Assembly (NCBI GenBank): GCA_049968235.1
Contig: JBMFRC010000001.1
Span: 128,001-192,000, forward strand
Length of the DNA stretch: 64,000 bases
Origin: Candidatus Hydrogenedens sp.
GTDB lineage: Bacteria; Hydrogenedentota; Hydrogenedentia; Hydrogenedentales; Hydrogenedentaceae
Direction of reading: 5' to 3'
Position 1 is the first letter of the stretch, and the number at the start of each line of letters is the position of its first letter. The notes under the pieces are model-generated. The model saw nothing but the letters and a program-made list of their open reading frames with translations, was not told the DNA's origin and made no database searches. Below are positions 1 to 40,425 of the stretch, piece by piece. The position numbers and the translations under genes were made by a program.

Positions 1-684
1 CGGTCCAAAAATATGGGCATACCATGAAAATTTAGCACCGGAGTTTAAATATGTTATAGGGGCTTGTGCCGTTTGTTCTAAGTCTAAAAATGGAACTTTC
101 ACTATGGATAATCCGAGCAAACTCATGGAATTTCCCTCGTCAATAGAACGCAAAATAGGAACTGTCACTGTAAGAGAATTGGGGACAATAACATTTTCTC
201 GAAACTCTACATTACAAAGAATTACACCCTCTTCAAATCGTTTATTCATACCGTATTCTGATTTAGCCTCAATAGGGACATAAATACTATCCCAATCACT
301 GGGAAATCCCAATCTATCACGAATATCATCAAAACCTTCATTATTCTTCTTACTAATTTCATACATTACCGCCGCAGAGACCAATGCATGTATATGTCTC
401 TCCCCTGGAATAACTCCTTGATTTGTTTCTACATTCGTTGTAGGAACGGGCACGAATACATCTCCATATACAACGGCGGTATTCACACGATAGGTCGTAG
501 CATAGATTTTTGCCACCTGCATAATTTGAGCCAGTTCTCTTGCTGTGCGTTTTACCGGGTCTGTTGCGTCTTTATAAAAGCGGAAAATAGAAGGAATGGA
601 AATGAGAGTTAACATTCCCACAATTCCCATTACAACCAGTAGTTCCGTTAATGTGTAACCTTGTTTTCTTTTTCTGGCAAACAT
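1..684 (-). CDS. prepilin-type N-terminal cleavage/methylation domain protein (pilin/pseudopilin-like); 3' end cut by window edge
   Basis: Manual minus-strand translation from ATG at 684-682 gives MFARKRKQGYTLTELLVVMGIVGMLTLISIP..., a class III signal with G|YTLTEL and Glu at +5. The frame stays open to position 1. It is absent from the ORF track because it has no in-window stop. Confidence 0.55.
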   Translation of the reverse strand, partial: MFARKRKQGYTLTELLVVMGIVGMLTLISIPSIFRFYKDATDPVKRTARELAQIMQVAKIYATTYRVNTAVVYGDVFVPVPTTNVETNQGVIPGERHIHALVSAAVMYEISKKNNEGFDDIRDRLGFPSDWDSIYVPIEAKSEYGMNKRFEEGVILCNVEFRENVIVPNSLTVTVPILRSIDEGNSMSLLGLSIVKVPFLDLEQTAQAPITYLNSGAKFSWYAHIFGP

Positions 685-766
685 TTTATAACAAGTCTTT
701 CATATTTAGAAGGGCAATGTATGTTCTACCTTCCCATACATTGCCCTTATATTAGTCAAATATTCA

Positions 767-1639
767 TTAACTATAGAAACGCATCCAACTCTGACCGGGG
801 TCCCAATTATTAATATCATCTCCACCCCCTTTATATTCTTCTTCTTGGTCTGCGTAGTTTGCAGAACCTTGATAATTTCCACCGGGGAGTGGATTTGCCA
901 AATTAGGATCGTAAACAGCCTGACCTGAAATCATATTAGCACCATTAGACCAGATAAAAGCCAATTTCCCTTTATCTGCGGGGAAACCTACTTCTATTGG
1001 TAAATTGGTTTCCGGGTCTGTTGTTGAAAATGTTAAAGTATCACTTCTTCTCCCACCTGACACACCTGGTAAAGTTTTTTCTTTTTCTCCTAACATATAA
1101 ATACGGAAGGGAATGGGTCCATTTCTTGGAGTCCAGGGACCCGGATAAATATTATACAAATTTCCCCATGGGTCAAAAGCAATATCTTCAAGATAACCAA
1201 CACCAAGTCTCATTACAACATCCTTATCTAAAATATCTGCATATATGATATTTAAATCATTGTCCGTTCTGCCATCCAGTACCCTACGACCTTCTCTTAA
1301 TAATGCGTACAGGGTATTTGTATATAATTTAATAACGGATTGAAATTGCTGGGAGGTCATAATATAAGGTGTATTATCTGCAAAATTAAAAATACTTCTG
1401 CGAATATAATCTGCATCAAACAGATAATTTAAGTTCTGCACATTGGCATCGGTAACCATTTTTGTTAGTGCAAGTTCAATACTTTTAATGTCCCCTAAAG
1501 CCCGTGTAGCTCTCCCTCGAGCAATATACCGGGCAACATTGGGAACTATGATAGCAGCAAGAATTGAGATAATTGCCATCACGACCAATAGTTCTACGAG
1601 TGTAAATCCTTTGTTTCTTTTCATACTGTCTTCCTCCAC
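767..1639 (-). CDS. type IV pilin-like / pseudopilin protein (prepilin-type N-terminal domain)
   Basis: N-terminus ...MKRNKGFTLVELLVVMAIISILAAIIVPNVA shows the prepilin motif G|FTLVEL with Glu+5 and a hydrophobic helix. The likely true start is the internal Met (MKRNKG, about 1624). Confidence 0.75.
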   Translation of the reverse strand: MEEDSMKRNKGFTLVELLVVMAIISILAAIIVPNVARYIARGRATRALGDIKSIELALTKMVTDANVQNLNYLFDADYIRRSIFNFADNTPYIMTSQQFQSVIKLYTNTLYALLREGRRVLDGRTDNDLNIIYADILDKDVVMRLGVGYLEDIAFDPWGNLYNIYPGPWTPRNGPIPFRIYMLGEKEKTLPGVSGGRRSDTLTFSTTDPETNLPIEVGFPADKGKLAFIWSNGANMISGQAVYDPNLANPLPGGNYQGSANYADQEEEYKGGGDDINNWDPGQSWMRFYS

Positions 1640-1763
1640 TCAGGTTTGTAGACGAACTTGTTTTTAATCTCGTCCTTTCTGTTATGAGTTCTTGTAAATA
1701 ATTTAACTGTTACTATATTTATACCACAAATACAGCTTTTGTTGCCGTATTTTTGTCTTATTT

Positions 1764-3022: not shown

Positions 3023-4801
3023 TTAATCTTCATAATAGTCTGTATGGGCTATCACTTCTTTTGCAGAAGTAACACCCTGAACACATTTTATTATACCTTC
3101 CTCGCGTAATGTTCGCATACCTAATTTCTTTCTCGCATATCTACGAATATCATACGCCATTGCACGGTCTAAAATCATTTCACAAACAGTTTCATCTACC
3201 TGTAAAATTTCAAATAAACCTGTTCTGCCCATATAACCAATATAATCACATGCGGGGCATCCTTTGGGTCGGAACAATTGAAGTTTCGGGTCATCCTGCC
3301 AATTTTTCGGTAAGCCTAATTCTTGCATCTCTTCTTTTGATGGACGATACCGTTCTCTGCAATGCCTGCAAAGACAACGCACCAACCGTTGTGCCAATAC
3401 CGCCTCTAAGGAAGCGGTTATCAGGTAGGGTTCAACATCCATATCCAGTAGACGGGTAATTGTTTCAGGAGCACTATTGGTATGCAAGGTACTTAACACA
3501 AGGTGCCCTGTTAATGATGCCTCTACTGCAATTTGTGCCGTTTCAAGGTCACGGATTTCACCGACCATTACAATATCCGGGTCCTGACGCAAGATAGAAC
3601 GCAAACCTGCTGCGAAGGTTAGTCCTACTTCTTCATTTACCTGACATTGCATTACCCTATCTATTTGCAATTCTACGGGGTCTTCCATCGTAATAATTTT
3701 TACTTCTTCGCTATTTAATTTTGCAATACACCCATATAAGGTAGTTGTCTTTCCTGAACCCGTAGGACCTGTAACTAACAAGATACCATTAGGACGGGCT
3801 AAAACATCATCCAACTTTGCTTTTACATTTTCACTTAACCCTAAACGGTCTAAATCGATACGGACCGCAGTTCGGTCCAAAATACGCATTACCACTCCTT
3901 CACCATACAATGTAGGAAGTGTCGCAACACGGATATCTATAATACTATCCCCAACTTTCAATTCAATACGCGAGTCTTGTGGTAATCGTCGTTCACCAAT
4001 ATCCATATTACACATAATTTTTACACGGGATACTAATGCAATTGCTAAAGTCTTGGGAGGATTGACAATTTCATGCAGAACGCCATCTACACGGATACGA
4101 ATACGAAAACGGTCTTCATATACTTCAAAATGAATGTCGGACGCCCTTTTCTTTACCGCTTCTAAAAATACCAGATTAACGATTTTAATAACTTCGGGCA
4201 ATTGTGCCAATTCCACCAAATTTTCAGTATCTTTGACAATTTCCTGTGTTCCCAATTCTTCAAGAGATAAATCTGAAGAACCTACTTTATCCTGCAATTC
4301 GGAAATCATCTCATGGATAGAATCGGTTTCGAAGGAATAATTATTTTTCCATGCGATGGCAATATCCTGCGGATTGCTAATAGCCCCCCGAACAGGCTGA
4401 CCGGTAATATGTCGTAAATCATCTAAAATTTGTAAATTTAAGGGGTCTGCCATTGCCACTACAAGGACACCATCTACCTCTTTGATAGGAATAACATTGT
4501 AAAAGCGAGCCACATCAGACGAAATTTTTCGTATAATATTTTCGGGGATTTTCAGTCGGGTAACATCAATCTTTTCCATCCCCAGTTGTGTTCCCAGCGC
4601 CTCGACAATTGCTTGCTCATCGCAATAGCCCATAGATACCAGCACACGACCTAAGAAATCGCCTGTTAATCGCTGTCGCTGGAGTGCTTCGTCCAATTGA
4701 AGTGGAATAATTATTCCCTGTTCTACCAGAATATCACCTAATCGACGCTGGTTAATTTGTGTGGTCTTTGTTTGACTGTGTTTCGCTAATGCACTTGACA
4801 T
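3023..4801 (-). CDS. GspE/PilB-family secretion/pilus-assembly ATPase with N-terminal MshEN (GSPII_E_N) domain
   Basis: Walker [15 protein letters not shown]; Asp box and His box (LSTLHTNSA); C-terminal tetracysteine CRHC...CPAC. N-terminus has tandem c-di-GMP-type motifs RRLGDILVEQGIIIPLQLDEALQRQ and DFLGRVLVSMGYCDEQAIVEALGTQ. Confidence 0.85.
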   Translation of the reverse strand: MSSALAKHSQTKTTQINQRRLGDILVEQGIIIPLQLDEALQRQRLTGDFLGRVLVSMGYCDEQAIVEALGTQLGMEKIDVTRLKIPENIIRKISSDVARFYNVIPIKEVDGVLVVAMADPLNLQILDDLRHITGQPVRGAISNPQDIAIAWKNNYSFETDSIHEMISELQDKVGSSDLSLEELGTQEIVKDTENLVELAQLPEVIKIVNLVFLEAVKKRASDIHFEVYEDRFRIRIRVDGVLHEIVNPPKTLAIALVSRVKIMCNMDIGERRLPQDSRIELKVGDSIIDIRVATLPTLYGEGVVMRILDRTAVRIDLDRLGLSENVKAKLDDVLARPNGILLVTGPTGSGKTTTLYGCIAKLNSEEVKIITMEDPVELQIDRVMQCQVNEEVGLTFAAGLRSILRQDPDIVMVGEIRDLETAQIAVEASLTGHLVLSTLHTNSAPETITRLLDMDVEPYLITASLEAVLAQRLVRCLCRHCRERYRPSKEEMQELGLPKNWQDDPKLQLFRPKGCPACDYIGYMGRTGLFEILQVDETVCEMILDRAMAYDIRRYARKKLGMRTLREEGIIKCVQGVTSAKEVIAHTDYYED

Positions 4802-5963: not shown

Positions 5964-7805
5964 TTATACTGCAACAGCAGGTTTGCGAAGAGGTTCATCA
6001 ATTCGTGTCCGTTTATTAACTTCTTCGACTGTAGTAATACCCATAGTCGCTTTACGCCATGCATCTTCACGCATGGTGGACATTCCCGATAAGCGGGCTT
6101 CTCTTCGAATTGCCGTCGCGGACTCTCCTCGCATGACCATTTCACGAATACGGTCTGTCGTTTGTAACAATTCATAAACGCCCAATCGTCCTTGATAACC
6201 CGTCTGATTACAATTGTCACAGCCCGCACCATGATATAACTCAATTGTAGAGAGGTCTACAGGAAAACCCAATCGGCGAATTTCAAATTCCGGAGGAACG
6301 CAGGGTTCTTTACAAACAGTGCAAATTGTTCTCACCAATCGTTGAGCAAGTATTGCGCGAATACCGGATGCCACAAGGAACGGTTTCACGCCGATATCCA
6401 CCAATCGGGTAAATGCGGTAGCGGTATCATTGGTGTGTAATGTTGAGAAAACCAGATGCCCTGTTAATGCGGCTTTAATAGCAATTTCAGCAGTCTCTAA
6501 GTCACGGATTTCACCGACCATTACAATATCGGGGTCCTGGCGGAATATAGCACGCAAAGCCCGGGCAAAATCCCAGCCAATTTCATGGTTGATTTGCACC
6601 TGATTAATCCCTGTAATTTGATACTCCACAGGGTCTTCTAAAGTAATAATTTTTACATCGGGCTGATTTAGATTATGGAGAGAAGCATAAAGGGTGGTGG
6701 TCTTCCCTGAACCTGTAGGTCCCGTAACCAGAACAACACCTGTAGCATGCTGAATTATTCGCTCCCAATTGTTTTGGACCTCTGGACTAAAGCCTAACTG
6801 CCCCAAACCTAACATAAGCCCGCTTTTGTCAAGAATACGCATAACGACACTTTCACCGAACACAGCTGGCAGAGAACTCACACGAAGGTCTATCACTTTA
6901 TTCCCTAATGTCATTTTGATTCGTCCATCCTGTGGAACCCGCCTTTCGGAAATATCCATCCCTGCCATAATTTTAAGTCGGGATATAATAGCTGCCTGTG
7001 CCCGTTTGGGGGGTAACGGCATTAAATGCATTACACCGTCTATACGATACCTTACTTTTACATCGGTTTTTCCAGGTTCGATATGTATATCACTTGCTCG
7101 TAAACGAAATGCTTCTAATATCATCTGATGAACATACTTTACCACAGGATTATCTGCATCCCCTTCTTCCATACCTTCTGTTGTTATGGATGTAGAAGGA
7201 AGATTCGCATCATCCATACTAACACTGCTTAAAGAAATATCGCTGGCACTAAAACTTGATGAAGAAGCCAAGGAACTATCAAACGAACTTACATTGGACA
7301 TCGAAGATAAGGAACTTACACTGCTGGCACTACTCGCAGAACTTAACAAGCTCTCTACTGTGGCTTCATGAACTCCATAATATTTCCCTAAAGCCATCGT
7401 TATTTCCTCAGGAGAAGCAAGAACTGGCTCTATGGGACGGTCAAGAAGTCGGGAAATATTATCCAGATTATTGACATTGGTCGGGTCCGATGTCGCAATA
7501 ATAACTTTATCCCCTCGCACTTCCACAGGCACTACTTTATAAAGTGTCGCTATGCTTCCATCCATAATATTACGAACACGCTCCGGCACATCCCTCTCAC
7601 TTAATTTTATTATAGGAATACCTAATTGTTCCGATAATGTCTCGATAATATGACTTTTGCTGATATACCCTAAACGAACAAGGATTTCTCCTATTTTTCG
7701 ATGCGACATCGTTGTTTGCTGGCGATGTATTGCTTCTCGAAGTTGCTCTTCGGATATTATTTTCTTCTCAACAAGTATCTGACCGAATAACTTATAAGTA
7801 CTCAT
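5964..7805 (-). CDS. PilB/GspE-family extension ATPase with MshEN domain and Ser-rich low-complexity linker
   Basis: Walker [15 protein letters not shown]; tetracysteine CTVCKEPC...CDNC. N-terminal motifs KLFGQILVEKKIISEEQLREAIHRQ and RKIGEILVRLGYISKSHIIETLSEQ. A roughly 65-aa Ser-rich insert lies between the N1 and N2 domains. Confidence 0.85.
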   Translation of the reverse strand: MSTYKLFGQILVEKKIISEEQLREAIHRQQTTMSHRKIGEILVRLGYISKSHIIETLSEQLGIPIIKLSERDVPERVRNIMDGSIATLYKVVPVEVRGDKVIIATSDPTNVNNLDNISRLLDRPIEPVLASPEEITMALGKYYGVHEATVESLLSSASSASSVSSLSSMSNVSSFDSSLASSSSFSASDISLSSVSMDDANLPSTSITTEGMEEGDADNPVVKYVHQMILEAFRLRASDIHIEPGKTDVKVRYRIDGVMHLMPLPPKRAQAAIISRLKIMAGMDISERRVPQDGRIKMTLGNKVIDLRVSSLPAVFGESVVMRILDKSGLMLGLGQLGFSPEVQNNWERIIQHATGVVLVTGPTGSGKTTTLYASLHNLNQPDVKIITLEDPVEYQITGINQVQINHEIGWDFARALRAIFRQDPDIVMVGEIRDLETAEIAIKAALTGHLVFSTLHTNDTATAFTRLVDIGVKPFLVASGIRAILAQRLVRTICTVCKEPCVPPEFEIRRLGFPVDLSTIELYHGAGCDNCNQTGYQGRLGVYELLQTTDRIREMVMRGESATAIRREARLSGMSTMREDAWRKATMGITTVEEVNKRTRIDEPLRKPAVAV

Positions 7806-8531: not shown

Positions 8532-8548
8532 TTTCTCTACCTCATTTG

Positions 8549-10108
8549 TTATTTTTTCTCTGCACTGGTTTGAGGTGAAGCATTATTTTTTTGTGGGAGC
8601 GAAGACTTTTGTACTTTTTGTATTCGTATTGCAAAACTGGTTTGATTTCCTTGAGCACTTAATTCTGGCTCATCCACAATATTAAAATAACTTACCTTCT
8701 TTAATTCAGAAATCGCCTGATTTATAAAAGCGGAATCGCCGGTTGTTCCCTGTATTCGAATCCACCAACTTTGCACATCAGGCGAACTTAATTTAATTTC
8801 TGTAATATTCACTTTATCCGAGGGCAGTTTTTCGGCAATGGTATTTAGTATATCCAGAAGAGGGGGGTCAAAGAAGGGAGATAAATCTATATTCTCATCC
8901 AGCCCTTTCTCCTGATTAACTCGATCTATTTCCTGGGTTAATTCATTTGCCTTTGCTTTATATAGATTACTATAAACAAGATTATTTAGTGTTAATTGTT
9001 GAAGGAAAAAGGCACCGCATACAAGCCCGGTCAGGATAAGACAATTGGTAAATATCAAATGACGGGATAAAGAGGATAAATAGGAATATAAGGATTGGTT
9101 TTCTTTTAGCAAATTAAATGAAAAGTAGGGGTCTAATGTTATTCCTGCTATACCCATGAGAGGATACCAGCGGGAAAGTGATTCCTCGGATTCTGCTTTC
9201 ATAGTATTTGGGAAAAGTAAAGATTGAGATAAAGAAACAGGCTCCACTTCCATCTTTACCAATCGTGAAAAAACACCTATCTCTTCATCGGATAAAGATA
9301 ATCCACTAATTTCTAATTTTTCTATTCCTTCTTTACTTTTCCATCGGGCAAGAAATGCTCTTAGGCTATTTTGTACTTCCCGGGCAAAAATTTCAGGATT
9401 CTCATAATAATTCTGAACACCTAATACCAGATGCCGTATAAAAACGAGTTTTCCTTCGTAAAGAACAGCAAGCGTAGAGAAATCTTTATGAACCACCAAA
9501 GCAGATTTTAATTTTTTTGTTTCTTTGCTTGCCTTTTCCCAGAGATATACTAAACCGAGTGAATTAATAACTGCAGTTTCGGGTTCTACAGAAAATTCCC
9601 GTAGGTATTGGATATAGTTTTGTATATGCTGTTTGCGGACACCCATCGTCAATACTTCTGTCTCTTTTTTTGTTTCATTCACCACAGTAAAATCAAGCAT
9701 TAACTCTTCAATGGGGAAAGGAATATGGGGTTCTAATTCAAAGCGAAGAGCAGACACTACTTTCTTCATTCCCCGAAATGGAACTGTTAATGACCGCACG
9801 ATACTTACAGAACACGGAACGGAAAGGGCAAAACATGTTGGTTTATGTTTTAATTGTTTAAAGGCTTCCTCTAATGCATTCAATACAGGTTCATCTTTAT
9901 TGGGCGTTTCTTCTGCTGAAATTACAGGCACTTCAATATCTTGAAGTAATTCAAGATTTTTACCTTTTTTTCGAACGGTTGCTAATCGAACCACATTTTC
10001 GCAAATCTCAATTGTTGTTACCAAATTTCCCATGTGTCTTTCTTTCGTTTTTATGGCTTTTATGGCTATATATTTTTTATTTTTCCCTATTATTTTATAA
10101 CTTTCCAA
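8549..10108 (-). CDS. GspL-like protein (cytoplasmic actin-like domain, single TM, periplasmic domain)
   Basis: The N-terminal roughly 330 aa resembles the PilM/GspL cytoplasmic domain, followed by a TM (FTNCLILTGLVCGAFFL) and a roughly 150-aa periplasmic domain. Probable start is the internal Met (MGNLV, about 10033), which gives a 57-nt spacer with a GAAAGAAAG ribosome-binding site. Confidence 0.55.
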   Translation of the reverse strand: MESYKIIGKNKKYIAIKAIKTKERHMGNLVTTIEICENVVRLATVRKKGKNLELLQDIEVPVISAEETPNKDEPVLNALEEAFKQLKHKPTCFALSVPCSVSIVRSLTVPFRGMKKVVSALRFELEPHIPFPIEELMLDFTVVNETKKETEVLTMGVRKQHIQNYIQYLREFSVEPETAVINSLGLVYLWEKASKETKKLKSALVVHKDFSTLAVLYEGKLVFIRHLVLGVQNYYENPEIFAREVQNSLRAFLARWKSKEGIEKLEISGLSLSDEEIGVFSRLVKMEVEPVSLSQSLLFPNTMKAESEESLSRWYPLMGIAGITLDPYFSFNLLKENQSLYSYLSSLSRHLIFTNCLILTGLVCGAFFLQQLTLNNLVYSNLYKAKANELTQEIDRVNQEKGLDENIDLSPFFDPPLLDILNTIAEKLPSDKVNITEIKLSSPDVQSWWIRIQGTTGDSAFINQAISELKKVSYFNIVDEPELSAQGNQTSFAIRIQKVQKSSLPQKNNASPQTSAEKK

Positions 10109-11364
10109 TCCAAAATACGGAATGGCTCTGGAGGTAGCCCTCCTTGATTTTGGACTGTTGTGGAATTATTGTTTGTTCGTTGCATATTTCGAGTTAAATT
10201 TTGTTGATTTGTTTTGTTGGTAGCAGGGTTTATGTTGGGGTTCAGTCCTGAGTTACTGACATCACCTAACTCCATAGGATTACGGAAGACATACGTTTCA
10301 ATTCGCACCATTCTTTTTTGATAAAGCCCATCACCATATATTCGAAAAGCATTGCTCTGGAGAGTAAAAATTTGTCCTGACATAACATAGCGTTGAGTGC
10401 GATTATCCGGTCTTTCGGCAGGTGTAATAACTGGTTTCCCTGCTTGTTGGGGAGTATTTCTTCTCTGTGTTGTCGGTGGTTTGGGTAAAATACCATAGGC
10501 ATCTAGTTGGCTTAAATCTGTAAACGGTTGTGTATGTGCATCATCAAAAATTCGCTGTCCTAAACCTAAATCTGCGGGATTTCCTGTATAACCACTGACA
10601 ATTGCTGCTATTACTTCAGGTTGGGCAGAATTAATGTTTACCCTACCCAGCCAATCTCCATGAACAGTAAAATATTCCGATAGAGGTAACTGATTCTTCT
10701 CCGGGTCACCAAAATATATTTCCGGTGTAATTCCTTTAATCAACAGCAATTCCTCGATTGAATCCATAGGACCATTCTTACATGAGTATGGATTTTCCAA
10801 TCCCATATAATAATCGTTCTCTGCTCCTTGAGGTCTTTCAGAATCGCCCTCATTGTAATCTAACCAGTCGAGAATAGAATCAACAATAATATCCGGACTG
10901 GCACCTTTTCCTGTATCACGTAAGGCAAAAAATTCTTTTAAAGCATTAACTAGAGGTGTCCGTTCTTGAGGTTCTCCTCCAGATTGTGGAACCAGTAAAG
11001 CATTCAAATTTATTTTCCCATATTCATCTGATATTGAAGCATGCATAAGAGCATTATTTAATGGCTCTGTTCCTGCACTCATATTAAAAGAAAGAAGGTC
11101 AAAATCGCTATCTATGGGTGGAGCACCACTCATCATGGTATTTAAATTATCCTCTGCAAGATATGCAATTGCTTTAGCCACTGCAGATTTCGCAGCCAGA
11201 TACGCTTCCAGGTCTCCCTGTTGACTATATGCTAAAGAAGCCTCAACTTCTGCCTCATATAAAAATTCAACTACAATAATGGACAGTAAAGCGATAAATA
11301 CTAATGCAAGAATAATGGCTACTCCTGTCCTTTTGCAAAGTTGAATTTTCGATTTTAATTTCAT
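10090..11364 (-). CDS. GspK-like minor pseudopilin
   Basis: 424 aa. N-terminus RTGVAIILALVFIALLSIIVVEF is a prepilin-like hydrophobic helix without Glu at +5, as in GspK. It is the largest pseudopilin and sits in the canonical position after GspJ. Confidence 0.6.
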   Translation of the reverse strand: MKLKSKIQLCKRTGVAIILALVFIALLSIIVVEFLYEAEVEASLAYSQQGDLEAYLAAKSAVAKAIAYLAEDNLNTMMSGAPPIDSDFDLLSFNMSAGTEPLNNALMHASISDEYGKINLNALLVPQSGGEPQERTPLVNALKEFFALRDTGKGASPDIIVDSILDWLDYNEGDSERPQGAENDYYMGLENPYSCKNGPMDSIEELLLIKGITPEIYFGDPEKNQLPLSEYFTVHGDWLGRVNINSAQPEVIAAIVSGYTGNPADLGLGQRIFDDAHTQPFTDLSQLDAYGILPKPPTTQRRNTPQQAGKPVITPAERPDNRTQRYVMSGQIFTLQSNAFRIYGDGLYQKRMVRIETYVFRNPMELGDVSNSGLNPNINPATNKTNQQNLTRNMQRTNNNSTTVQNQGGLPPEPFRILDWKVIK

Positions 11365-11372
11365 GGTAATTT

Positions 11373-12260
11373 TTACCTTCTATTTCTGAACTTATCGCGT
11401 GCAGTAGTATTCGGAGTTGCACCTTTGGTTTTATTGCTATCCATCTTAAACAGGGAACCGACATCCCGGAAATGATTGGGGTCATCCATAGGTTGGACTG
11501 TTCCTACTGTTGTAGGTAGAACAATCACAAGGTCTATATCTCCTTCCCCATTTGCAGAGGCGTTGTTGACATCTCCATATTCATCAAATAGGTTCGCAAT
11601 AATATGTACCGCCCATGGCATCTGTTGAACTGATAGCGAATCCCATTCTTCTACCCAATCCTGTTTAATGGGGTCATAATAATAGATGTCTAACGAAGCA
11701 AGCGGAACTTTTATTACATTTACAGGCAGAGAATTAATATCGCTCGAAAAGCCACCGGATTCTTCATCCAGAATAAGTGGTGATTCTGTAATAGTCAAAA
11801 ATTGGGGAGCGTTATTTGAAATACCATATATATCTGTGGCAAAGCCCGACAGACCTTCAGGTGGAGATGTATCCTCAAAAGAATAGGTAACTACCCTACG
11901 AATACCCGGTAAGGCAGTGGGTCCTGGCATCGGTAATGAAGTGCAAAAACGGATGGAATCCGCAGGTCCATACTGTCCTGATTCGTTTTTTCCTATAAAT
12001 TGATAACCCGAAGAGGAATAGGAAGAGTCGATATACAGGGCATTAAAAGAATTGAAAAAATGATTTACTAAGAATCGTTGTATCCTCATTTTTTCCGCCG
12101 ATAACCGTGCTAAATCAGTCCCTTTTGATATAGAATCCAACCCTAAATAAACAATGATTACGATAATAGACATTATGGTAAAAGCAATGAGCAACTCCAG
12201 AAGTGTGAAACCATTGGCTTTTTTAGGGTAAGGATATTTATTTTCTTTTTTAATCCACAT
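11373..12260 (-). CDS. GspJ-like minor pseudopilin
   Basis: N-terminus KANGFTLLELLIAFTIMSIIVIIV has the prepilin motif with Glu+5. Position between the GspI-like and GspK-like genes. Confidence 0.55.
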   Translation of the reverse strand: MWIKKENKYPYPKKANGFTLLELLIAFTIMSIIVIIVYLGLDSISKGTDLARLSAEKMRIQRFLVNHFFNSFNALYIDSSYSSSGYQFIGKNESGQYGPADSIRFCTSLPMPGPTALPGIRRVVTYSFEDTSPPEGLSGFATDIYGISNNAPQFLTITESPLILDEESGGFSSDINSLPVNVIKVPLASLDIYYYDPIKQDWVEEWDSLSVQQMPWAVHIIANLFDEYGDVNNASANGEGDIDLVIVLPTTVGTVQPMDDPNHFRDVGSLFKMDSNKTKGATPNTTARDKFRNRR

Positions 12261-12263
12261 AAA

Positions 12264-12827
12264 TTAATTTCCCAACAGGGAATTCCTTCTTGCAGAGAAG
12301 CCACTGGCAGGGGCTTTCATAGGGTTTGTAGTTCCTCCTCGATTGGTTTTATTGGTATCACCGGTTAAATCATTTGTTTGATTTTCCATAGTCAGGTCAT
12401 AACACAAAAAGGTCAAGTTTTTGCTTTCATTCTCCGGAGTGTATAAGGTTACATTTACAGAATATAAGAGAATAGATGGGTCAGAACCTATTGCAGTGGC
12501 AGAATAACTCCATGAGTAGCCTTCATAACTTGTTCCGAAATCGCCATTTCCTTCCAGTGTCCCCGTCAGCACTCCTATTTCTGCACGGGAGCAAGCCGCA
12601 TAAACCAATTGATTTTCATCTGTCTGATTTATAGTAATCTGGTGAAGTTTCATTGCATTAAAGTAGACATTAAACAGAATAAAAGCGGAACCTCCTAAGA
12701 TGGCTAATGCCGTCAAAATCTCCATCAGCGTGAAACCAACTTTTGTTTTTTTATCTTTTATAGCGAATAAAAATATTTTCATTGGGCTCCTTCCAGCACA
12801 TAAGCACCTGCGGAAACAGGGTCCCAT
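12264..12827 (-). CDS. GspI-like minor pseudopilin
   Basis: KTKVGFTLMEILTALAILGGSAFILF prepilin motif. The ORF-track start overlaps the upstream gene; the probable real start is the internal MKIFLF Met (about 12782). Confidence 0.5.
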   Translation of the reverse strand: MGPCFRRCLCAGRSPMKIFLFAIKDKKTKVGFTLMEILTALAILGGSAFILFNVYFNAMKLHQITINQTDENQLVYAACSRAEIGVLTGTLEGNGDFGTSYEGYSWSYSATAIGSDPSILLYSVNVTLYTPENESKNLTFLCYDLTMENQTNDLTGDTNKTNRGGTTNPMKAPASGFSARRNSLLGN

Positions 12828-13597
12828 ACAACGGTATAATAATCATTATTTGCGTTTCTTACATAAAAACCAATTGATTCTGTTAACCCGAGAGGTGTTA
12901 CAGGTATTTCTACAAGACCTCTGGAAAACTTATTTCCACCGATAAAAACGCTTTCAATCGTTATATTTTCGGACAAACGAACCGGAGATAGACCCGGTTC
13001 ATTGACTTCTTCTATTACTGGCTCTATATTAAATATATCCACATTATTCTTTTTATCAAAAAGAGGTCCTATCTCATCCATTAGGCTATCTTCATGTTTC
13101 ACATTTTTTGCTTGTTCTATTAATTTCCTTTTTGCCAATTTTTCAAATCGGTCATTAATCTGTCGGTTCATGGCTTCTGTATCAAAACCTCCTGGAGCAG
13201 GAGTGTTTCTCGTGTTTTTTGTAGTGCCTGTTCCCGTAGCAGAATTCATAAAAAGTTCTGCCATTTGTTCCGGGGACATGCCCTGCTCTTTCATACTTTC
13301 AAACAGCCCTAATTGGTCTTGTTCTCCCTCATTTGCCTCAGGATAAGTAACTTTTAAACAATAATATTTCTGTTGGTCTAAATCAATTTCTACATAGAAT
13401 TCATCTCCCAATAAAGCGGATGTTGACATTACTGCTCTACCGAAATATGCTAATCGCCTGGCTTCGCTTTCCAACTCCGAAGATAATGCAAGGGGAAGCA
13501 AATAAGGAACAGTAATAGTTGCCATTAAGGCAATAATAAAAATAACAATCCCCAATTCAAGCAATGTAAAGCCATCTTTTCCCCGTAAAGCAACCAT
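12779..13597 (-). CDS. GspH-like minor pseudopilin
   Basis: N-terminus MVALRGKDGFTLLELGIVIFIIALMATITVPYLL has the prepilin motif with Glu+5. It directly follows gspG. Confidence 0.5.
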   Translation of the reverse strand: MVALRGKDGFTLLELGIVIFIIALMATITVPYLLPLALSSELESEARRLAYFGRAVMSTSALLGDEFYVEIDLDQQKYYCLKVTYPEANEGEQDQLGLFESMKEQGMSPEQMAELFMNSATGTGTTKNTRNTPAPGGFDTEAMNRQINDRFEKLAKRKLIEQAKNVKHEDSLMDEIGPLFDKKNNVDIFNIEPVIEEVNEPGLSPVRLSENITIESVFIGGNKFSRGLVEIPVTPLGLTESIGFYVRNANNDYYTVVWDPVSAGAYVLEGAQ

Positions 13598-13642
13598 AAT
13601 TTTAATATTTATACCTCATGCAAAAAATAATATCCTGCGGAA

Positions 13643-14038: not shown

Positions 14039-14041
14039 GTT

Positions 14042-15280: not shown

Positions 15281-15327
15281 ATTTTCTCAAAATATTATAA
15301 AGGGGTGTTTTTTTTCTTGCTTTCTTT

Positions 15328-34876: not shown

Positions 34877-35298
34877 GGCAACTTGCTCCTTATATTTTAT
34901 TCATATCCTTTTGCAATTCTTTAAATTTTATATGTATATCTTTAACTCTTTGCAGATGGAATATCTATCCTCCTACAAATATGTTGTATTAAAAGTATTT
35001 TACTACATACATAATATATATCTGAAACTTTTATCCTTTCTTAAAACCATTTTTTCGATAATAGTTTAACATTTATTAATAACCAATATACAATTTTTTA
35101 TTACATAAATTATAATATAATCTTATAATTATGTCAACAATTTATTTCATTTTCAAATTATTTTTGTCTTTTTATTCTACTTTTTTTAATAAATTAATTT
35201 TACAGCATATTTAACACACATTTGTCAAGAGAAATCTTTACTGAAAACTTTAATAAAAGGAACAAAATCGGATGTCAGATAAGAAAATCCTTTTAATT
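34877..35298 (-). promoter_or_regulatory. AT-rich 420-bp region upstream of the giant gene (probable promoter region)
   Basis: Long noncoding, extremely AT-rich tract immediately 5' of the giant ORF start codon. Confidence 0.3.
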
Positions 35299-37197
35299 TT
35301 ATCGGGAATTATCCACATCACTCACAGACTTTAACATATCACGAACAAGGTCTACCAATTCTTGCCTCACCTGATAAACACCCTGTTTTCCCTCTTTCTT
35401 TGCCCAGCGATAACGCGAGTCCATATCGTTTATTGCACCTATATTTAATGTACCTGCCAGGATACTGGGAGTTTGTTTTTTCTCTGCAAGTTTAATAGAA
35501 ATGGTAAGTGTAATCTCTCCTATTTTTGTTTCATCCTCTTTTTGATTGCTCACATAACCTGCTGTTAAAGTTGACATATAACGAAGTAACCGAAGTAAAT
35601 CGCCCTGATTTGTTAATACTTTATTTTCAGGTTTTTTTATGGTCCATTGCCCATCAATCTGTGAAAACATAAATGATTGAGAATCTATGATAATTCCAAT
35701 TTCTTGAACTTCTGCCGGAGAAAATCGATATAAAAGTAAGCTGCGGAAACTCTCCGGGCGAACCCAGATTTGAGAAATAATTTCTTTTGAAATAATTCCA
35801 ACTTCTCCGGTGTCGTTATTAATGTAAGAGTGCAATTCATCATCAGGAACAGGGACATATCGGATTTCAAAGGTTTTTCCATCTTCCATAGTAAACCGTA
35901 ATATATCTTTTGATTTATTTAATCCTCGTTCTTCCCATGTTCCTCCGGGAAAACTTTGCACCTCTATGTTCTTTAATTTACCCAGATAATCATTTATAGT
36001 TAATACATCAATATCTTCTAACGGGGGGTCAGACATCACCCATCCTTTTTCTTTTGTTTTTTCAAGTATAAATACAGTTTGTTCACCTTCCATTCTTTCT
36101 ATTTTATTTACATTTGTTAGTTCATTTGTAAAAATTTTACGATTTCTAAAACTTTCGGGAGAACGAGGTAATAATTGCAAGAATTGAGGGTCTAATAAAA
36201 AGACAGAGTTCTGTCCTGATAATTTTGCGAAGACACCCGTACATTCCGATAATTTCAATCGTTTTCGTTTTTCTTTATCTTTCTCCTGAGTACTTTGTCC
36301 TGCGGTTTGCACTCCTCCTAAAAATAATGTTTGAGGTTTTTTGTATTTTGCATCCAGATAGGTTAATCGGCATCGAGGAGGGTCTAACCCATAATCAGAC
36401 AAACTTTCAGGATTATCTATAAAGTCTCTTGCAACACCGTATTGTATCTCTGATGCAAGAGCATTTACGGCTTCCTGGTCTGCAAGTCCTTGACTCGGTG
36501 CTATAATTTTCCATGGAGATTTTTCATTTTCCCGTTCCATTATAACCGCAGTGGATTCTTCACCAATTTTGGGCGTGTAATTTGCGTCCTGGATGTTATC
36601 ATCTTCGGTCCATATCCGCGTATATTCGATACGAATCAAAGGAGTTTCTCGCTCTGTAACTAAAAATCGGAATCGCAAATCTTCTAATGAACGATTTAAT
36701 TCAAAAAATTGTTTGTCATCCACTAAAAATACCGACTGTCCATCCATTGTTGTATAACGGTAAGTACTGGTAGGGTCAAGAAGTCCAAAATTTAGTTCTA
36801 TCGGTTCTTTCATTCCATCAATTACCGCTTTAACAGTCAAACTCGGTTTGTCCAGACCGTATGCAGTTTTATCATCCATTTTTGCAACCAGTGTTCTCTG
36901 ATTTTTTAGTTCGGCAAGATTTTTTGCAACCCGTTCCCACATCAATTGAAATGCTGGAATATCCGTAGAGGGTTTTATAAAACACCATTTCCCCTCCGTA
37001 TTTTTTTTAGCGATACATGCGAATTTTCCTGCCTGCTGTATATAAAGTTCGCGGACTGTCTGTGGCTCAAATGAAAAAACCTTCTTTACCTCTTCCCGAA
37101 TCGTTTGTTGCTCTTCCTTTTGCCAATCTAAGAACCAATAGAAAGAAAGGAGACATACCAGAATTATTATCAGAACTATGGTATTACGCCATTTCAC
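35299..37197 (-). CDS. DUF4340-like membrane-anchored protein (fourth gene of the ABC/GldG module)
   Basis: N-terminal TM IVLIIILVCLLSFYWFL followed by a large extracytoplasmic domain. The ORF-track ATG (37284) overlaps the upstream gene by 90 nt. A GTG at 37197 preceded by AAGGAGG, overlapping the upstream TGA (GTGA), is the more likely start. Confidence 0.5.
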   Translation of the reverse strand: MKWRNTIVLIIILVCLLSFYWFLDWQKEEQQTIREEVKKVFSFEPQTVRELYIQQAGKFACIAKKNTEGKWCFIKPSTDIPAFQLMWERVAKNLAELKNQRTLVAKMDDKTAYGLDKPSLTVKAVIDGMKEPIELNFGLLDPTSTYRYTTMDGQSVFLVDDKQFFELNRSLEDLRFRFLVTERETPLIRIEYTRIWTEDDNIQDANYTPKIGEESTAVIMERENEKSPWKIIAPSQGLADQEAVNALASEIQYGVARDFIDNPESLSDYGLDPPRCRLTYLDAKYKKPQTLFLGGVQTAGQSTQEKDKEKRKRLKLSECTGVFAKLSGQNSVFLLDPQFLQLLPRSPESFRNRKIFTNELTNVNKIERMEGEQTVFILEKTKEKGWVMSDPPLEDIDVLTINDYLGKLKNIEVQSFPGGTWEERGLNKSKDILRFTMEDGKTFEIRYVPVPDDELHSYINNDTGEVGIISKEIISQIWVRPESFRSLLLYRFSPAEVQEIGIIIDSQSFMFSQIDGQWTIKKPENKVLTNQGDLLRLLRYMSTLTAGYVSNQKEDETKIGEITLTISIKLAEKKQTPSILAGTLNIGAINDMDSRYRWAKKEGKQGVYQVRQELVDLVRDMLKSVSDVDNSR

Positions 37198-38858
37198 TTT
37201 AATTTCCTCCTTACAAAATAGACAAAAATTCCTGCGAACAAAACAATTTGAGGTGTCATCATCACAGCACACCAGAGCAACCATTGTTTTTGAGTGTTTG
37301 TAAGGACTATCGGTTTGTCTTCCTTTGTTGTCGGACGGATAGCAATAAGTTCATCGTGTTCCGTAAGCCATGCTAAACTATTTAATAGAAAATTAATATG
37401 TCCTCCGATACTAATCCGCTCATTGGTAATAAAATCTGCATCTCCCACGACAACAAAACGGCTTCGTTTTTTCGTTCCATCTGCCTGGTCTTTCGTTCGT
37501 ACTCCTGCTACCGCCACATAAAGTGGTCCTTCTTTCTCACCGGCCTCATACTTCACAGTTCCACCTTCTGCTAACCGAGAGAGGTCTGTTTCTGCCCAAT
37601 AATCGGGTGGTGTCCTGAGTAAAGGGAAAACCTGCAAATTCTCCGGCATTTTTTCAATAGGGTTAACAGTTCGCACTGCTCGCCATAGTAAAGGCTGGTC
37701 CATTCGTTGTGTAATGGGATGGTCAATACGCATGGAACCCCGAAAATCCATAAAGTCTTTTTCTACATTTTCAAAAGGCTGTGGGTCCGAACGGAATTCT
37801 ATTTCCCATGGATTTTTTCGCTGAATTGTAAAAGCAATATCCGAGCCGACATTGATACCCAATTGTTCCTTCAACCATGGACGCAAATTTTCTGCCCCAC
37901 TTTTGCCCAAACGAACACTTATCCATGGTTCAAATAAGATAAAAAGACGGCCCCCTGCATTTAGGAAATTTAAAATGGCATTCAATTCTTCACGGTTCAA
38001 ATCTCCTTTGGGATTATGAATAATAACTGCTTCATAACTTTTGGGAACTTCGGGCAATTCAATACTTATCTGGAAAGGCTCAATTTTATATGTCTCGCCT
38101 TCTATAATCTTTTTCGCTGTAGAAAGCCCGCCCGGACTGGTATCATCAATCGGTGTCTCATCATGTCCTGTTAAATATCCAATTTTTGTTTCGGTCTCTT
38201 TTAATACATTAATTAAAGATTGAGTGAAATCTCGTTCCTCCATGCGCGGATTAGCACCACTCAACATAATAACCCTCTGGCGAGTGCCACATTTTAATAC
38301 AATAGTTCCCTGAGTTGATGCGTGGGTTATTTCCAGTGCTTCCAGACGGGCACGGTCTATTTGCGGGTCCAAAATTTCTATATTTAAAAAGGGTGTATGT
38401 TTTTTACACTGCTCTAAAAAACGAAGGGTTTTATCTCGGGCAATTACCACAGATTCTTCGTCAATATTGATAAAGAAACACAATACTTTTACTTCTTTGT
38501 TGATTGACTGCAAAACTTTAATGGTTTGTGGGGATAATGTTCGACGACCTTCTTCTGTCAGGTCAACGGAAATATCCCATCGCAAGACGAAAGCATATAG
38601 AACTATGCAAATCCCTAAAAAAGTAAGTGTCGAAAGGACTGCATTTAAACCCGAAACAGCACGACCTGACCAACCTGATTCCATCACAATATTCCAGAAA
38701 ACTGTCCCTAACCAGATAATACCTGAAACAACAAAAACTCCTCCCAATAATAAAACCCACAGATTAAAAGCATCCTGCTTCCAAACAACATAATTTAAAA
38801 CAATCAGTAAACTGATGGCAGAAATAATACCGCTATAAGTCTTTAAATACCTTTTCAT
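37194..38858 (-). CDS. GldG-like ABC-transporter auxiliary component
   Basis: 554 aa with an N-terminal TM, a large periplasmic domain and a C-terminal TM (PQIVLFAGIFVYFVRRKLK). Gene order ATPase, ABC-2 permease, GldG-like, DUF4340 is the conserved four-gene module. Confidence 0.6.
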   Translation of the reverse strand: MKRYLKTYSGIISAISLLIVLNYVVWKQDAFNLWVLLLGGVFVVSGIIWLGTVFWNIVMESGWSGRAVSGLNAVLSTLTFLGICIVLYAFVLRWDISVDLTEEGRRTLSPQTIKVLQSINKEVKVLCFFINIDEESVVIARDKTLRFLEQCKKHTPFLNIEILDPQIDRARLEALEITHASTQGTIVLKCGTRQRVIMLSGANPRMEERDFTQSLINVLKETETKIGYLTGHDETPIDDTSPGGLSTAKKIIEGETYKIEPFQISIELPEVPKSYEAVIIHNPKGDLNREELNAILNFLNAGGRLFILFEPWISVRLGKSGAENLRPWLKEQLGINVGSDIAFTIQRKNPWEIEFRSDPQPFENVEKDFMDFRGSMRIDHPITQRMDQPLLWRAVRTVNPIEKMPENLQVFPLLRTPPDYWAETDLSRLAEGGTVKYEAGEKEGPLYVAVAGVRTKDQADGTKKRSRFVVVGDADFITNERISIGGHINFLLNSLAWLTEHDELIAIRPTTKEDKPIVLTNTQKQWLLWCAVMMTPQIVLFAGIFVYFVRRKLK

Positions 38859-38873
38859 CGGCTAATAATACTC

Positions 38874-39704
38874 CTACTTTCGCCAGTTTCTCGACTCTAA
38901 GGAACGGAATGTCAAAAATATAAAGAAGGCTGTGCAAAGAAAGTAATAGGCTATGTCCTTCGGTTCGACTATTCCCAATGCCATATTCTTCGCATGATTA
39001 TCTAATGGTAGTTCTAATAATAAAGAACGAAATAGAACATATAACTTTTCAACAATATTTTTTAACATTAACGGGAAAGAATTGGGCAATGGGGCAGATG
39101 CAGGTAATTTCTCTGCAACATTTCCAATAATAAACATCATTAAATAAATTCCAAAACTTACTAAACCTGCCGTTATTGGATAGGTTATCAAGGAGGAAAT
39201 AAATAAGCCGACACTTAAGACAGCCATTCCCATTAAAAAGACAGAACATAGTCCAAATAATAAAACACTCCATTCAACATCAGTAAACGGGAGCAGTAAA
39301 CAAACATTTAAGCTAATAAGAACTGTTGCCAGTAATAACACCGCTAATGCGGAGCTGAATTTCCCAAAAATAATGTCCCTATCTCGTAACGGATAAGTCA
39401 ACATTAGTTCCATTGTTCCTCGATGATATTCCTCAGAAAGTAACCGCATGGTAATTATCGGCGATAAAAACATAATCATAATTCCACAAAATACAAAATA
39501 CGGACTTAAAAAAGTCTCCTCAAAATCAGGCACAGAGGAATAGCCAAACTGAAACGGTGACTGAGAAATTTGCACATATGTCAAAAATGACATCACGAAG
39601 GCTGTACCTGTCAATAACGCAATTAAACCTAAAATCACATACCCCGAAGGTGTTACAAAAAAACTCATGAATTCTCTTTTCCCGATGTTCCACACAGATT
39701 TCAT
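38874..39704 (-). CDS. ABC-2 type transporter permease
   Basis: 276 aa with six predicted TM helices, immediately downstream of the ABC ATPase with a 4-nt gap. Confidence 0.7.
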   Translation of the reverse strand: MKSVWNIGKREFMSFFVTPSGYVILGLIALLTGTAFVMSFLTYVQISQSPFQFGYSSVPDFEETFLSPYFVFCGIMIMFLSPIITMRLLSEEYHRGTMELMLTYPLRDRDIIFGKFSSALAVLLLATVLISLNVCLLLPFTDVEWSVLLFGLCSVFLMGMAVLSVGLFISSLITYPITAGLVSFGIYLMMFIIGNVAEKLPASAPLPNSFPLMLKNIVEKLYVLFRSLLLELPLDNHAKNMALGIVEPKDIAYYFLCTAFFIFLTFRSLESRNWRK

Positions 39705-39708
39705 CGTT

Positions 39709-40425
39709 CTATCCTATCTCTTCTTTTGATATAGCCTTCAAAAATGCTTGTTCAATTTCTGCGGATGGCTGAAGAGGGTCAATTGGAATTCCTGCCACAA
39801 TCTCGCCTCTATTTAAAATTAAAGCACGGGAACACAACAATGATACTTCAGAAAGAATATGCGTACTTAATAGAACCGTATGTTTCTCACCTAAATTTTT
39901 TATCAACTCTCGAATCTCAACTACCTGTTGTGGGTCTAAACCAACCGTTGGCTCATCTAAAATAATTACAGGCGGAGAACCCAGTAATGCCTGTGCCAAA
40001 CCTAATCGTTGCCGATACCCTTTTGATAGAACACCCACCACACGGTTAAAAACCTGTTCTAAACCACAAGTGTGAACTACTTCATCCACCGCTGACCTCC
40101 ACTCTCCCCCTGAAATTCCTTTTACCTTTGCTACAAATTTCAGAAAAGATTTAACCGTCATTTCATCATACAAGGGGACTCGTTCCGGCAAATAACCAAT
40201 TAACCGCTTTGCCTCCAGAGGATATTCATGAATTTCATACTGTCCAATTTTCGCTATTCCATAACTTGCAGGCATAAAACCTGTAAGAATACGCATCATC
40301 GTGCTTTTCCCTGCACCATTCGGTCCTAACAATCCCACACGCTCCCCTTCTTGAATGGAAAAAGAGACATCCTTCAACGCACAAAATAAACCATAATATT
40401 TCGTTAACTTCTGCACATCAATCAT
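39709..40425 (-). CDS. ABC transporter ATP-binding protein
   Basis: Walker A GLLGPNGAGKST; ABC signature LSKGYRQRLGLAQAL; Walker B IILDEPTVGLD; H-loop LLSTH. Confidence 0.9.
   Translation of the reverse strand: MIDVQKLTKYYGLFCALKDVSFSIQEGERVGLLGPNGAGKSTMMRILTGFMPASYGIAKIGQYEIHEYPLEAKRLIGYLPERVPLYDEMTVKSFLKFVAKVKGISGGEWRSAVDEVVHTCGLEQVFNRVVGVLSKGYRQRLGLAQALLGSPPVIILDEPTVGLDPQQVVEIRELIKNLGEKHTVLLSTHILSEVSLLCSRALILNRGEIVAGIPIDPLQPSAEIEQAFLKAISKEEIG

Follow-up and report, generated by a model that had tools for sequence, protein, structure and literature searches.

A giant exported protein and its matrixin-like partner beside a type II secretion system in Candidatus Hydrogenedens: a candidate surface-display locus

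How might a bacterium bring a protein of ~400 kDa to its surface? The question is raised by a 64-kb stretch of DNA from Candidatus Hydrogenedens sp. (~39% G+C; this whole stretch is referred to as the window), in which the gene for a 3825-aa exported protein, hereafter the giant protein, is followed on the minus strand by that of a matrixin-like membrane protein, hereafter its partner, and by the gspC to gspM genes of a type II secretion system (T2SS). A preliminary description had taken everything from position 40425 down to position 1 as one co-functional 40-kb supercluster, joining these genes to an ATP-binding cassette (ABC) module and a pilus module in an export, processing and display apparatus or a contact-dependent surface organelle. 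Here we propose a narrower answer: the position of the giant/partner pair, usually upstream of the T2SS, suggests that this secretion machine brings the giant protein to the cell surface for display. We favor this reading, in which giant protein and partner are displayed in a T2SS-dependent manner, and give it a probability of about one half. To our knowledge, the Hydrogenedentota have no cultured, genetically tractable member, and a literature search found no paper on their envelope or secretion systems.

Conservation of the giant/partner pair and of its neighborhood

We scanned genomes for loci carrying the partner gene, keeping one genome per species, which yielded 66 loci, and compared the window proteins with the fetched loci by tblastn. 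Nearly all of these loci come from metagenome-assembled genomes (MAGs) named Hydrogenedentota or equivalent; the window partner is itself 100% identical to a protein of a Candidatus Hydrogenedens MAG, and its named homologues all belong to Hydrogenedentes (157/157). The giant gene was directly followed by the matrixin-like gene in all 54 of 54 species loci, at partner identities of 28-83%. Indeed, in four loci (L038, L040, L042, and L074; junctions in Table 1), which represent at least three separate lineages and both of the tail types described below, the two open reading frames (ORFs) are fused in frame with no stop codon. At the fusion junction, the membrane helix and RRR cluster of the giant protein tag run into the partner signal peptide, which is topologically consistent because the tag helix runs outward-to-inward and the signal peptide inward-to-outward. 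Such in-frame fusions are classical evidence that giant and partner work together. Judged from gene order and fusions, the giant gene and the protease-like gene are thus a genuine phylum-wide functional pair, and the sole invariant unit of the chain.

Some MAGs in this set bear other names, being labelled 'uncultured Nitrospirales' or 'uncultured Nitrospiraceae' (L015, L017, L018, L021, L033, L035, L042, L056, L058, L072, L074, L076, and others), and a Hydrogenedentota-type locus (L049, DATKVG010000084.1) sits in a bin labelled Bathyarchaeia. Mis-binning, labelling error or placeholder taxonomy probably accounts for these names.

The further links of the proposed chain vary between genomes. 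The T2SS (gspC/D) lies directly downstream of the pair in 35 of the 54 species loci, including loci at 28-33% identity, and in three further loci (L032, L086, and L087) it is convergent to the pair yet still abuts it. No other secretion system stands beside the pair in the loci without an adjacent T2SS, where the neighbors are housekeeping genes. Downstream of the T2SS, a pilB-pilT-pilB-pilC-pilin module was found in 21/33 loci (13/25 where GspL identity falls below 50%), always 200-800 bp from gspM, or 3.8 kb away with an extra gene in L009; this module is absent after gspM in 12/33 loci, and in L010 a TolC-like gene takes its place. The four-gene ABC module of the window recurs in L006, L007, and L008. 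It adjoins the giant gene in 3 of the 11 loci where this could be judged, as seen too in L008 and the window lineage; it also lies upstream of the giant gene in the divergent lineages L006, L008, L046, and L056, and stands alone in L007, away from the giant gene.

The spacing of the genes in the window matches this graded linkage. As described earlier, all 23 genes between 40425 and 1, and hence every ORF with family support there, lie on the minus strand, and the plus-strand ORFs of this region are short and each contained in a long minus-strand gene. Pfam and NCBIfam searches upheld most of the earlier family calls and the gene order, namely ABC ATPase, ABC-2 permease, GldG-like, DUF4340, giant, matrixin-like, gspC D E F G H I J K L M, PilB-like (613 aa), PilT, PilB-like (592 aa), PilC/GspF-like, pilin (290 aa), and a second pilin-like ORF. 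With gap sizes computed from the starts of the longest ORFs, exactly three exceed 130 bp, as had been claimed: 422 bp (DUF4340/giant), 183 bp (matrixin-like/gspC), and 213 bp (gspM/pilB-like). All other intergenic distances range from -91 to +124 bp, the larger overlaps arising from ORF starts called too long, since homologues of the DUF4340, GspL, GspI, and GspD proteins start further inside the window ORFs. The three large gaps coincide with module borders, which in the window are promoter-like and AT-rich. In particular, the very AT-rich 422-bp gap holds a candidate sigma-70-type promoter ~230 bp upstream of the giant start, which is the sole 12/12 match to TTGACA-17-TATAAT in the two scanned stretches (7600-23600 and 34700-41400). 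Scanning of the module borders revealed no convincing minus-strand terminator, and an Rfam scan of the whole window was empty, so the gaps hold no known RNA, cyclic di-GMP (c-di-GMP) riboswitch included.

Because the gaps coincide with module borders, a promoter match precedes the giant gene and adjacency varies between genomes, we read the 40 kb as a chain of four modules with graded linkage. The notion of a single co-functional supercluster is not sustained by an ABC module that adjoins the giant gene in 3/11 loci and occurs alone in L007, a pilus module absent from 12/33 loci, a T2SS set apart from the pair in 19/54, and a promoter consensus before the giant gene.

Architecture and C-terminal tags of the giant protein and its partner

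The giant protein starts with a Sec-type signal or anchor, and an N-terminal Sec-type signal is present in all of its orthologues. A candidate lipoprotein signal in the window protein ('IIGC') has a Cys conserved only in the close lineage; other orthologues have ordinary signal-peptidase I sites. Searching Pfam with five fragments of the protein at E up to 1 returned nothing but a pair of PKD domains (about aa 1985-2170, nt 28367-28924) and a single TIG domain (aa 3685-3761, nt 23585-23824), leaving >90% of its length without a Pfam match. Since self-BLAST found zero internal repeats, we rejected the label of PKD/TIG repeat protein that had been given to it. Its orthologues span ~1,850-4,120 aa and fall into two size classes of ~1,900-2,300 aa and ~3,300-4,100 aa. 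The same five fragments, searched against Pfam and NCBIfam at E up to 1, contained no type I secretion system (T1SS)/RTX C-terminal signal, no autotransporter barrel of a type V secretion system (T5SS), and no type IX secretion system C-terminal domain. A known T1SS or T5SS substrate, which would have pointed to an independent exit, is therefore not what these searches found.

At their C-termini, the giant protein and its orthologues carry one of two tags at the same position. In type A tails, which occur in many lineages and include that of the window (nt 23402-23539; 'FGC', spacer, membrane helix, 'KKK'), the last TIG domain is followed by '...GFEY.N......[F/L/P]GC', a Gly-rich spacer of 10-15 residues, a hydrophobic helix, and a K/R cluster. 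More distant lineages have type B tails, with a full CFI-box-CTERM domain 'PCFIATAAYG...FRD..LL....G.AFVD.YY..SP', a helix, and RRRR, which match the NCBIfam model NF041770 over its full length at 87.9-91.7 bits (cut-off 40). This two-tag observation covers the window and L047, L049, L052, L057-L059, L061, L068, L070, L074, L076, and L077. The window giant tail gave zero match to NF041770, retaining only the Cys, helix, and basic tail. Compared across orthologues, the short Cys-helix-basic tail and the 69-residue CFI-box suggest that a sorting-type domain was replaced or truncated in the course of evolution. In all fetched loci, the Cys-tag and CFI-box motifs occur only in the giant protein and its partner.

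The partner, whose ORF begins with GTG, combines several predicted elements: a signal peptide, an MMP-like domain, beta domains, the Cys497 motif PMFGDPNDVCPMNII, a poly-Thr linker, and a CFI-box core (aa 526-572), followed by a membrane helix with a basic cluster, a signal-like helix ending in AxA ('SNASA'), an NTR/TIMP-like module (aa ~640-775), and two helices. Its designation as a matrixin holds in part. The match to Pfam Peptidase_M10 reaches 23.0 bits against a threshold of 24 and is limited to the zinc-motif region (aa 188-219), and a partner-family profile matched MMPs in the PDB at E about 0.5. On the other hand, the protein has the zinc motif H207ELGHFLGLDH217 (HExxHxxGxxH; nt 22682-22714), a Met-turn region ('ATPTMFP'), and a fold predicted to be MMP-like. 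An AlphaFold model of the whole protein, made from 41 sequences, has a predicted local distance difference test score (pLDDT) of 74.5, and a model of the C-terminal domain reaches 93. In Foldseek, the whole-protein model retrieved the catalytic domains of MMP-11, -8, and -13 at probabilities of 0.98-1.0, with weak E-values (2.6e-3 to 9.2e-3). By sequence motifs and modelled fold, the partner is a member of the metzincin clan. The model also retrieved TIMP/NTR modules, and its C-terminal module shows the OB barrel and flanking helices of the NTR fold. Only one Cys occurs in this module, and the predicted N-terminus that follows 'SNASA' lacks one. Since the N-terminal Cys and disulfides of inhibitory TIMPs are lacking, a TIMP-type inhibitor role is only a possibility.

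The invariant partner motif 'PMFGDPNDVCP(L/M)N(V/I)I' contains Cys497 and leads through a poly-Thr or Gly linker into the CFI-box core, which scores 40.4-43.8 bits against the cut-off of 40 as a partial, internal match (positions 18-65 of 69). The partner thereby differs from a regular CFI-box-CTERM protein: its copy is internal, the 'CFIATAAYG' start is replaced by 'CPMNII' plus a poly-Thr insert, and a helix and a folded domain follow. Overall, the partner resembles a tagged protease to which a signal peptide and an NTR-like domain have been joined, with a junction like those of the giant-partner fusions. The window protein and 38/65 orthologues have an intact zinc motif; the motif is degenerate in 27/65 (in L025-L041, L045, L047, L051, L055, L056, L064, L067, L073, and L075-L077). 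Degeneration tracks the neighborhood, affecting 16/18 loci without T2SS adjacency versus 9/34 with it (Fisher p = 2e-5, uncorrected for phylogeny), and so partner catalysis appears tied to the T2SS-adjacent state, as far as these sequence comparisons go.

Proposed surface display and competing explanations

In the sequence of events that we propose, the giant protein and its partner would use Sec for insertion and be retained at the inner membrane through their tags, which would be processed at or near the Cys. The adjacent T2SS (GspC-M) would then take the giant protein, and probably the protease domain too, across the outer membrane, and the giant protein would stay attached outside as a surface adhesin or matrix-like protein. 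In this arrangement, the TIMP/NTR-like module of the partner would be found beyond a helical hairpin. What the analysis establishes is the gene content, the tags, their conservation, the fusions, and the predicted folds; that the T2SS is required, that the tags are cleaved, and that the giant protein is anchored at the surface we infer by analogy from MAG data. The giant/partner pair and the genomic link of a T2SS to an orphan sorting domain appear to be new and testable.

We consider T2SS-dependent display the best reading because Cys-tagged proteins of the same architecture need a T2SS to reach the surface. In Myxococcus xanthus, MYXO-CTERM proteins start with a signal peptide and end in a tripartite tag (invariant Cys, helix, basic tail), are cleaved by the CPBP-family myxosortase, and require the T2SS for surface localization; this set comprises adhesins and hydrolases (PMC11980579). 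It includes a metalloprotease family, to which a weak match (NF041905) was seen in the window. The window differs in that its tail fails the MYXO-CTERM model, it encodes no CPBP-type enzyme, and its ~400-kDa putative cargo is encoded beside the T2SS. Similarly, GlyGly-CTERM proteins such as Vibrio cholerae VesB require rhombosortase and a T2SS, and co-occurrence links the Cys-containing Synerg-CTERM to a divergent T2SS operon (10.1101/2023.06.07.544157). Common to these systems and to our proposal is a C-terminal sorting tag coupled to T2SS-dependent surface retention; they differ from the window in their signature motifs, no homologue of rhombosortase or MrtS was seen here, and our evidence is gene adjacency. 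CFI-box-CTERM itself, which ends giant orthologues in full and whose core occurs in the window partner, returned no publication on the domain or its pathway in our literature search. As for the partner, the Mtz-Tim pair of Listeria couples a metzincin genetically with a TIMP-like lipoprotein, the two being separate genes of phage origin in a Gram-positive host (PMC8235301); here, both folds are predicted within one diderm membrane protein, with helices between them, that is paired with a giant protein.

Several observations weigh against this reading. In 19/54 species loci, the T2SS does not adjoin the pair and housekeeping genes follow instead, and where gene neighbors stay together within a single phylum, common descent instead of function may be part of the reason. 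HExxH is degenerate in 27/65 orthologues, which rules out proteolysis as the conserved role of the partner. Six type A tails searched against NCBIfam at E up to 1 gave no match to MYXO-, JDVT-, Synerg-, CGP-, or GlyGly-CTERM, and the 64-kb window contains no CPBP, rhombosortase, or exosortase candidate for a sorting enzyme. A literature search found no experiment or transcript data for Hydrogenedentota. Finally, a folded cargo of ~400 kDa is far larger than the T2SS substrates that we know of.

These points lend some weight to a possible, if rather tentative, alternative, namely that the pair and the T2SS are independent neighbors. The C-terminal helix of the giant protein could keep it fixed in the inner membrane, from where it would span the periplasm, or the protein could leave by another route; the nearby systems would be general-purpose ones, close by ancestry or shared regulation of envelope genes. 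The modules do occur singly (the ABC module in L007, a T2SS without pilus genes in L010, the pair without a T2SS in 19/54 loci), the larger gaps fall at module borders with a perfect promoter consensus before the giant gene, and the window tail matches no curated sorting model. Against it, the pair-T2SS adjacency persists at 28-33% identity and through an inversion (L032, L086, L087), the same tag architecture is T2SS-dependent elsewhere (PMC11980579), and the coincidence of adjacency loss with protease-motif decay (p = 2e-5, uncorrected for phylogeny) suggests a functional link. The opposite view, that of the preliminary description, would unite ABC transporter, T2SS, and retractable pilus in a single integrated organelle whose task is the export, processing, and display of the giant protein or contact-dependent interaction. 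We find this highly improbable. All genes run in one direction and lie close together, the pilus module comes after gspM in 21/33 loci (13/25 below 50% GspL identity) and, in the window and L011, lacks its own secretin and PilMNOP, the ABC module precedes the giant gene in divergent lineages (L006, L008, L046, and L056), and a c-di-GMP motif is common to the three large ATPases; still, the ABC module is missing upstream of the giant gene in 8/11 loci and stands alone in L007, the pilus module is missing in 12/33 and, in L009, lies 3.8 kb away behind an extra gene, promoter-like AT-rich gaps mark the module borders, and zero shared components have been demonstrated. Nor does any result obtained here tie the extension and retraction ATPases to the Gsp proteins as parts of one machine. 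The idea of an export, processing, and display apparatus thus survives as a reasonable hypothesis for the central part of the locus, given the pair (54/54), the T2SS (35/54), the Sec signals, and the Cys tags, and not for the whole 40 kb.

Another explanation centers on the partner as a self-inhibited surface protease, whose TIMP/NTR-like module would keep the MMP-like domain latent until export, the giant protein being a substrate or scaffold that is trimmed or released, much as giant adhesins are released under protease control. One polypeptide is indeed predicted to hold both the MMP-like and the NTR/TIMP-like fold, this polypeptide is paired, and at times fused, with the giant protein, and the zinc motif is intact in the window and 38/65 orthologues. 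We nevertheless regard this account as very doubtful: the pair persists where the catalytic motif has decayed (27/65), the NTR-like module is devoid of the N-terminal Cys and disulfides of inhibitory TIMPs, and a fold match alone is no proof of inhibition. Within T2SS-dependent display, a more specific proposal is that CFI-box-type Cys tags are the sorting signal of an undescribed T2SS-coupled surface-display system, in which the Gsp machinery exports the ~400-kDa cargo and the partner serves as a processing, latency, or anchoring factor, replacing intramembrane sortases or acting beside them; taken as a whole, we rate this as unlikely.

Should T2SS-dependent display hold, the orphan NCBIfam domain CFI-box-CTERM would gain a concrete genomic partner, a T2SS, and the emerging rule that C-terminal membrane tags (GlyGly-CTERM, MYXO-CTERM, Synerg-CTERM) mark T2SS cargo for surface retention would be widened. 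The ~400-kDa cargo would be the largest T2SS substrate known to us, raising the questions of the size limit of such substrates and of the role of a bacterial protein with MMP-like and TIMP-like folds. The orthologous swap of the 69-residue CFI-box for the short Cys-helix-basic tail is in itself a natural experiment on which parts of the tag are needed.

Secretion, pilus and ABC modules, and flanking genes

The features of the locus are collected in Table 1. The T2SS is, by its family matches, a regular member with some divergent parts. GspC (with its PDZ domain), D, E, F, G, and K stand in canonical order, and D, E, F, and G pass equivalog cut-offs. The earlier statement that the system is complete stands for these six proteins and requires qualification for the rest: H, I, and J are generic pseudopilins whose weak GspH/I/J matches are all below cut-offs, so that they were assigned by gene order; GspL is a PilM/PilN-type fusion, its family profile matching solved PilM structures at E 2.6e-15; and GspM, without any Pfam or NCBIfam family match, was named by position and is kept after gspL in related loci. 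Neither GspO nor GspN is encoded in the cluster, and a search of the window proteins found no prepilin peptidase (GspO/PilD) in the 64 kb; it may be encoded elsewhere in the genome. Also unlike classical Gsp systems, a second set of ATPase, PilT, and platform genes directly follows. GspE carries an N-terminal MshEN-type c-di-GMP-binding motif (for example, RRLGEILLDLGFVEEEHVLEALSEQ), as known from some T2SS ATPases (PMC5013675).

The PilB-PilT-PilB-PilC-pilin module is a separate type IV pilus-like system and a frequent neighbor of the T2SS. With PilB, PilT, PilC, and pilins, it is a partial type IVa pilus gene set: neither the PilM/N/O/P alignment complex nor the PilQ secretin was found in the window module or within 10 kb after gspL in L011, and these components could be encoded elsewhere. 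In the related locus L011, the module goes on with genes of 284, 295, 141, and at least 596 aa, of which the 284-aa and the at least 596-aa products have N_methyl motifs. The start of the 290-aa window pilin is probably Met6. GspE and both PilB-like ATPases share the N-terminal MshEN-type motif (NF053729, 60-64 bits versus a cut-off of 38); because all three large ATPases carry it, the pilus module and the T2SS may be co-regulated, and shared second-messenger control of secretion and piliation would be allowed by this motif.

The ABC/GldG-like/DUF4340 module is an occasional neighbor without demonstrated link to the giant/partner pair. Its GldG-like protein, so named in the earlier account, belongs to the broad Pfam ABC_transp_aux family (82.2 bits versus a cut-off of 34.7); against the NCBIfam GldG equivalog, it reaches 45 bits over a short N-terminal stretch only, versus a cut-off of 389.85. 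The module is thus of the broad ABC_transp_aux/DUF4340 type and not GldG proper of the gliding-motility GldA/F/G set. DUF4340 homologues of 603-632 aa cover 95% of the window ORF, whose true start probably lies ~30 codons inside the longest ORF. In CFI-box-tailed lineages, the position of the ABC module, directly upstream of the giant gene, is taken by a co-directional gene for a TPR and SLT lytic transglycosylase (~680-720 aa). Among the upstream neighbors in lineages without the ABC module, there was no sorting enzyme; a TPR-SLT lytic transglycosylase or a glycoside hydrolase was found instead, and no protease.

Table 1. Coordinates of the features discussed (window positions unless a locus is named; scores in bits, versus cut-offs where given)
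Feature	Coordinates	Strand	Support
ABC transporter ATPase, 238 aa, first gene of its module	39709..40425	-	Pfam ABC_tran 99.9 bits
ABC-2 type permease, 276 aa	38874..39704	-	Pfam ABC2_membrane_2 and ABC2_membrane
GldG-like auxiliary protein, 554 aa	37194..38858	-	Pfam ABC_transp_aux
DUF4340 protein	35299..37284	-	Pfam DUF4340 150.8 bits
Sigma-70-type promoter consensus TTGACA-17-TATAAT (candidate)	35109..35137	-	12/12 match, consensus match only
Giant exported protein, 3825 aa	23399..34876	-	Sec-type signal/anchor, PKD, TIG, C-terminal tag; orthologues
Matrixin-like membrane protein, 805 aa	20915..23332	-	Pfam/NCBIfam matches, AlphaFold, Foldseek, residue conservation
GspC, C-terminal PDZ, 320 aa	19769..20731	-	Pfam T2SSC 44.7 vs 27, PDZ_2; NCBIfam GspC_delta below cut-off
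Secretin GspD	17067..19724	-	NCBIfam type_II_gspD 451.2 vs 351.35; Pfam type_II_gspD_N0, three Secretin_N, Secretin
GspE assembly ATPase, N-terminal MshEN-type c-di-GMP motif	15328..17067	-	NCBIfam type_II_gspE 691.8 vs 630.25; NF053729 64.1 vs 38
GspF platform protein	14042..15280	-	NCBIfam GspF 435.7 vs 424
Major pseudopilin GspG	13643..14038	-	NCBIfam typeII_sec_gspG 92.0 vs 88.85
Three minor pseudopilins, GspH-, GspI-, and GspJ-like (272, 187, and 295 aa)	11373..13597	-	N_methyl motifs; gene order
Minor pseudopilin GspK	10090..11364	-	Pfam T2SSK_1st 59.2 vs 26.2; NCBIfam T2SS_GspK 113.5, below 130
GspL-like protein: PilM-type cytoplasmic domain, membrane helix, PilN-like periplasmic domain	8549..10108	-	Pfam PilM_2, PilN, T2SSL
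GspM-like small bitopic protein, 170 aa	8019..8531	-	Position only
PilB-like assembly ATPase, 613 aa, MshEN c-di-GMP motif, first gene of its module	5964..7805	-	type_IV_pilB 635, below 675.65; NF053729 60.9 vs 38
PilT-family retraction ATPase, 369 aa	4832..5941	-	NCBIfam pilT_fam 461.1 vs 319.1
Second PilB/GspE-like ATPase, 592 aa, MshEN c-di-GMP motif	3023..4801	-	type_IV_pilB 601.6 and gspE 594.1, both below cut-offs; NF053729 63.5 vs 38
PilC/GspF-family platform protein, 413 aa	1764..3005	-	NCBIfam GspF 428.4 vs 424; PilC models below cut-offs
Pilin-like protein, 290 aa	767..1639	-	N_methyl 40.9 bits; IV_pilin_GFxxxE domain
Second pilin-like ORF, 'GYTLTELLVV...'	1..684	-	Runs off left window edge
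Giant-partner fusion junctions	L038 ~9560-10200; L040 ~9700-10270; L042 ~9500-10180; L074 ~9640-10520		
TPR-SLT lytic transglycosylase genes	L057 2461-4482; L058 1790-3829; L068 1036-3198; L070 1692-3845; L076 905-3001		

When the remainder of the window was searched for a sorting enzyme, it yielded housekeeping genes only, including those for menaquinone and isoprenoid synthesis, ApbE, and a sulfatase/LPG-synthase-like protein. The latter (49686-52748, minus strand) is a 1020-aa fusion of an LPG-synthase-type membrane domain and a sulfatase or phosphodiesterase domain, possibly a lipid- or envelope-modifying enzyme. A 541-aa protein with a bacterial surface Ig-like domain is encoded at 58792-60417 (plus strand), and a 165-aa ORF at 62152-62649 (minus strand) matches only the C-terminal part of a DNA methylase (N6_N4_Mtase positions 78-220) and is perhaps a truncated gene. 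The ABC module is flanked divergently by the genes of a 988-aa protein without family match (41313-44279, plus strand) and of a ComF-like protein with a double zinc ribbon and a phosphoribosyltransferase domain (44281-45102, plus strand); the same 988-aa-type/ComF-like pair flanks the cluster of L008.

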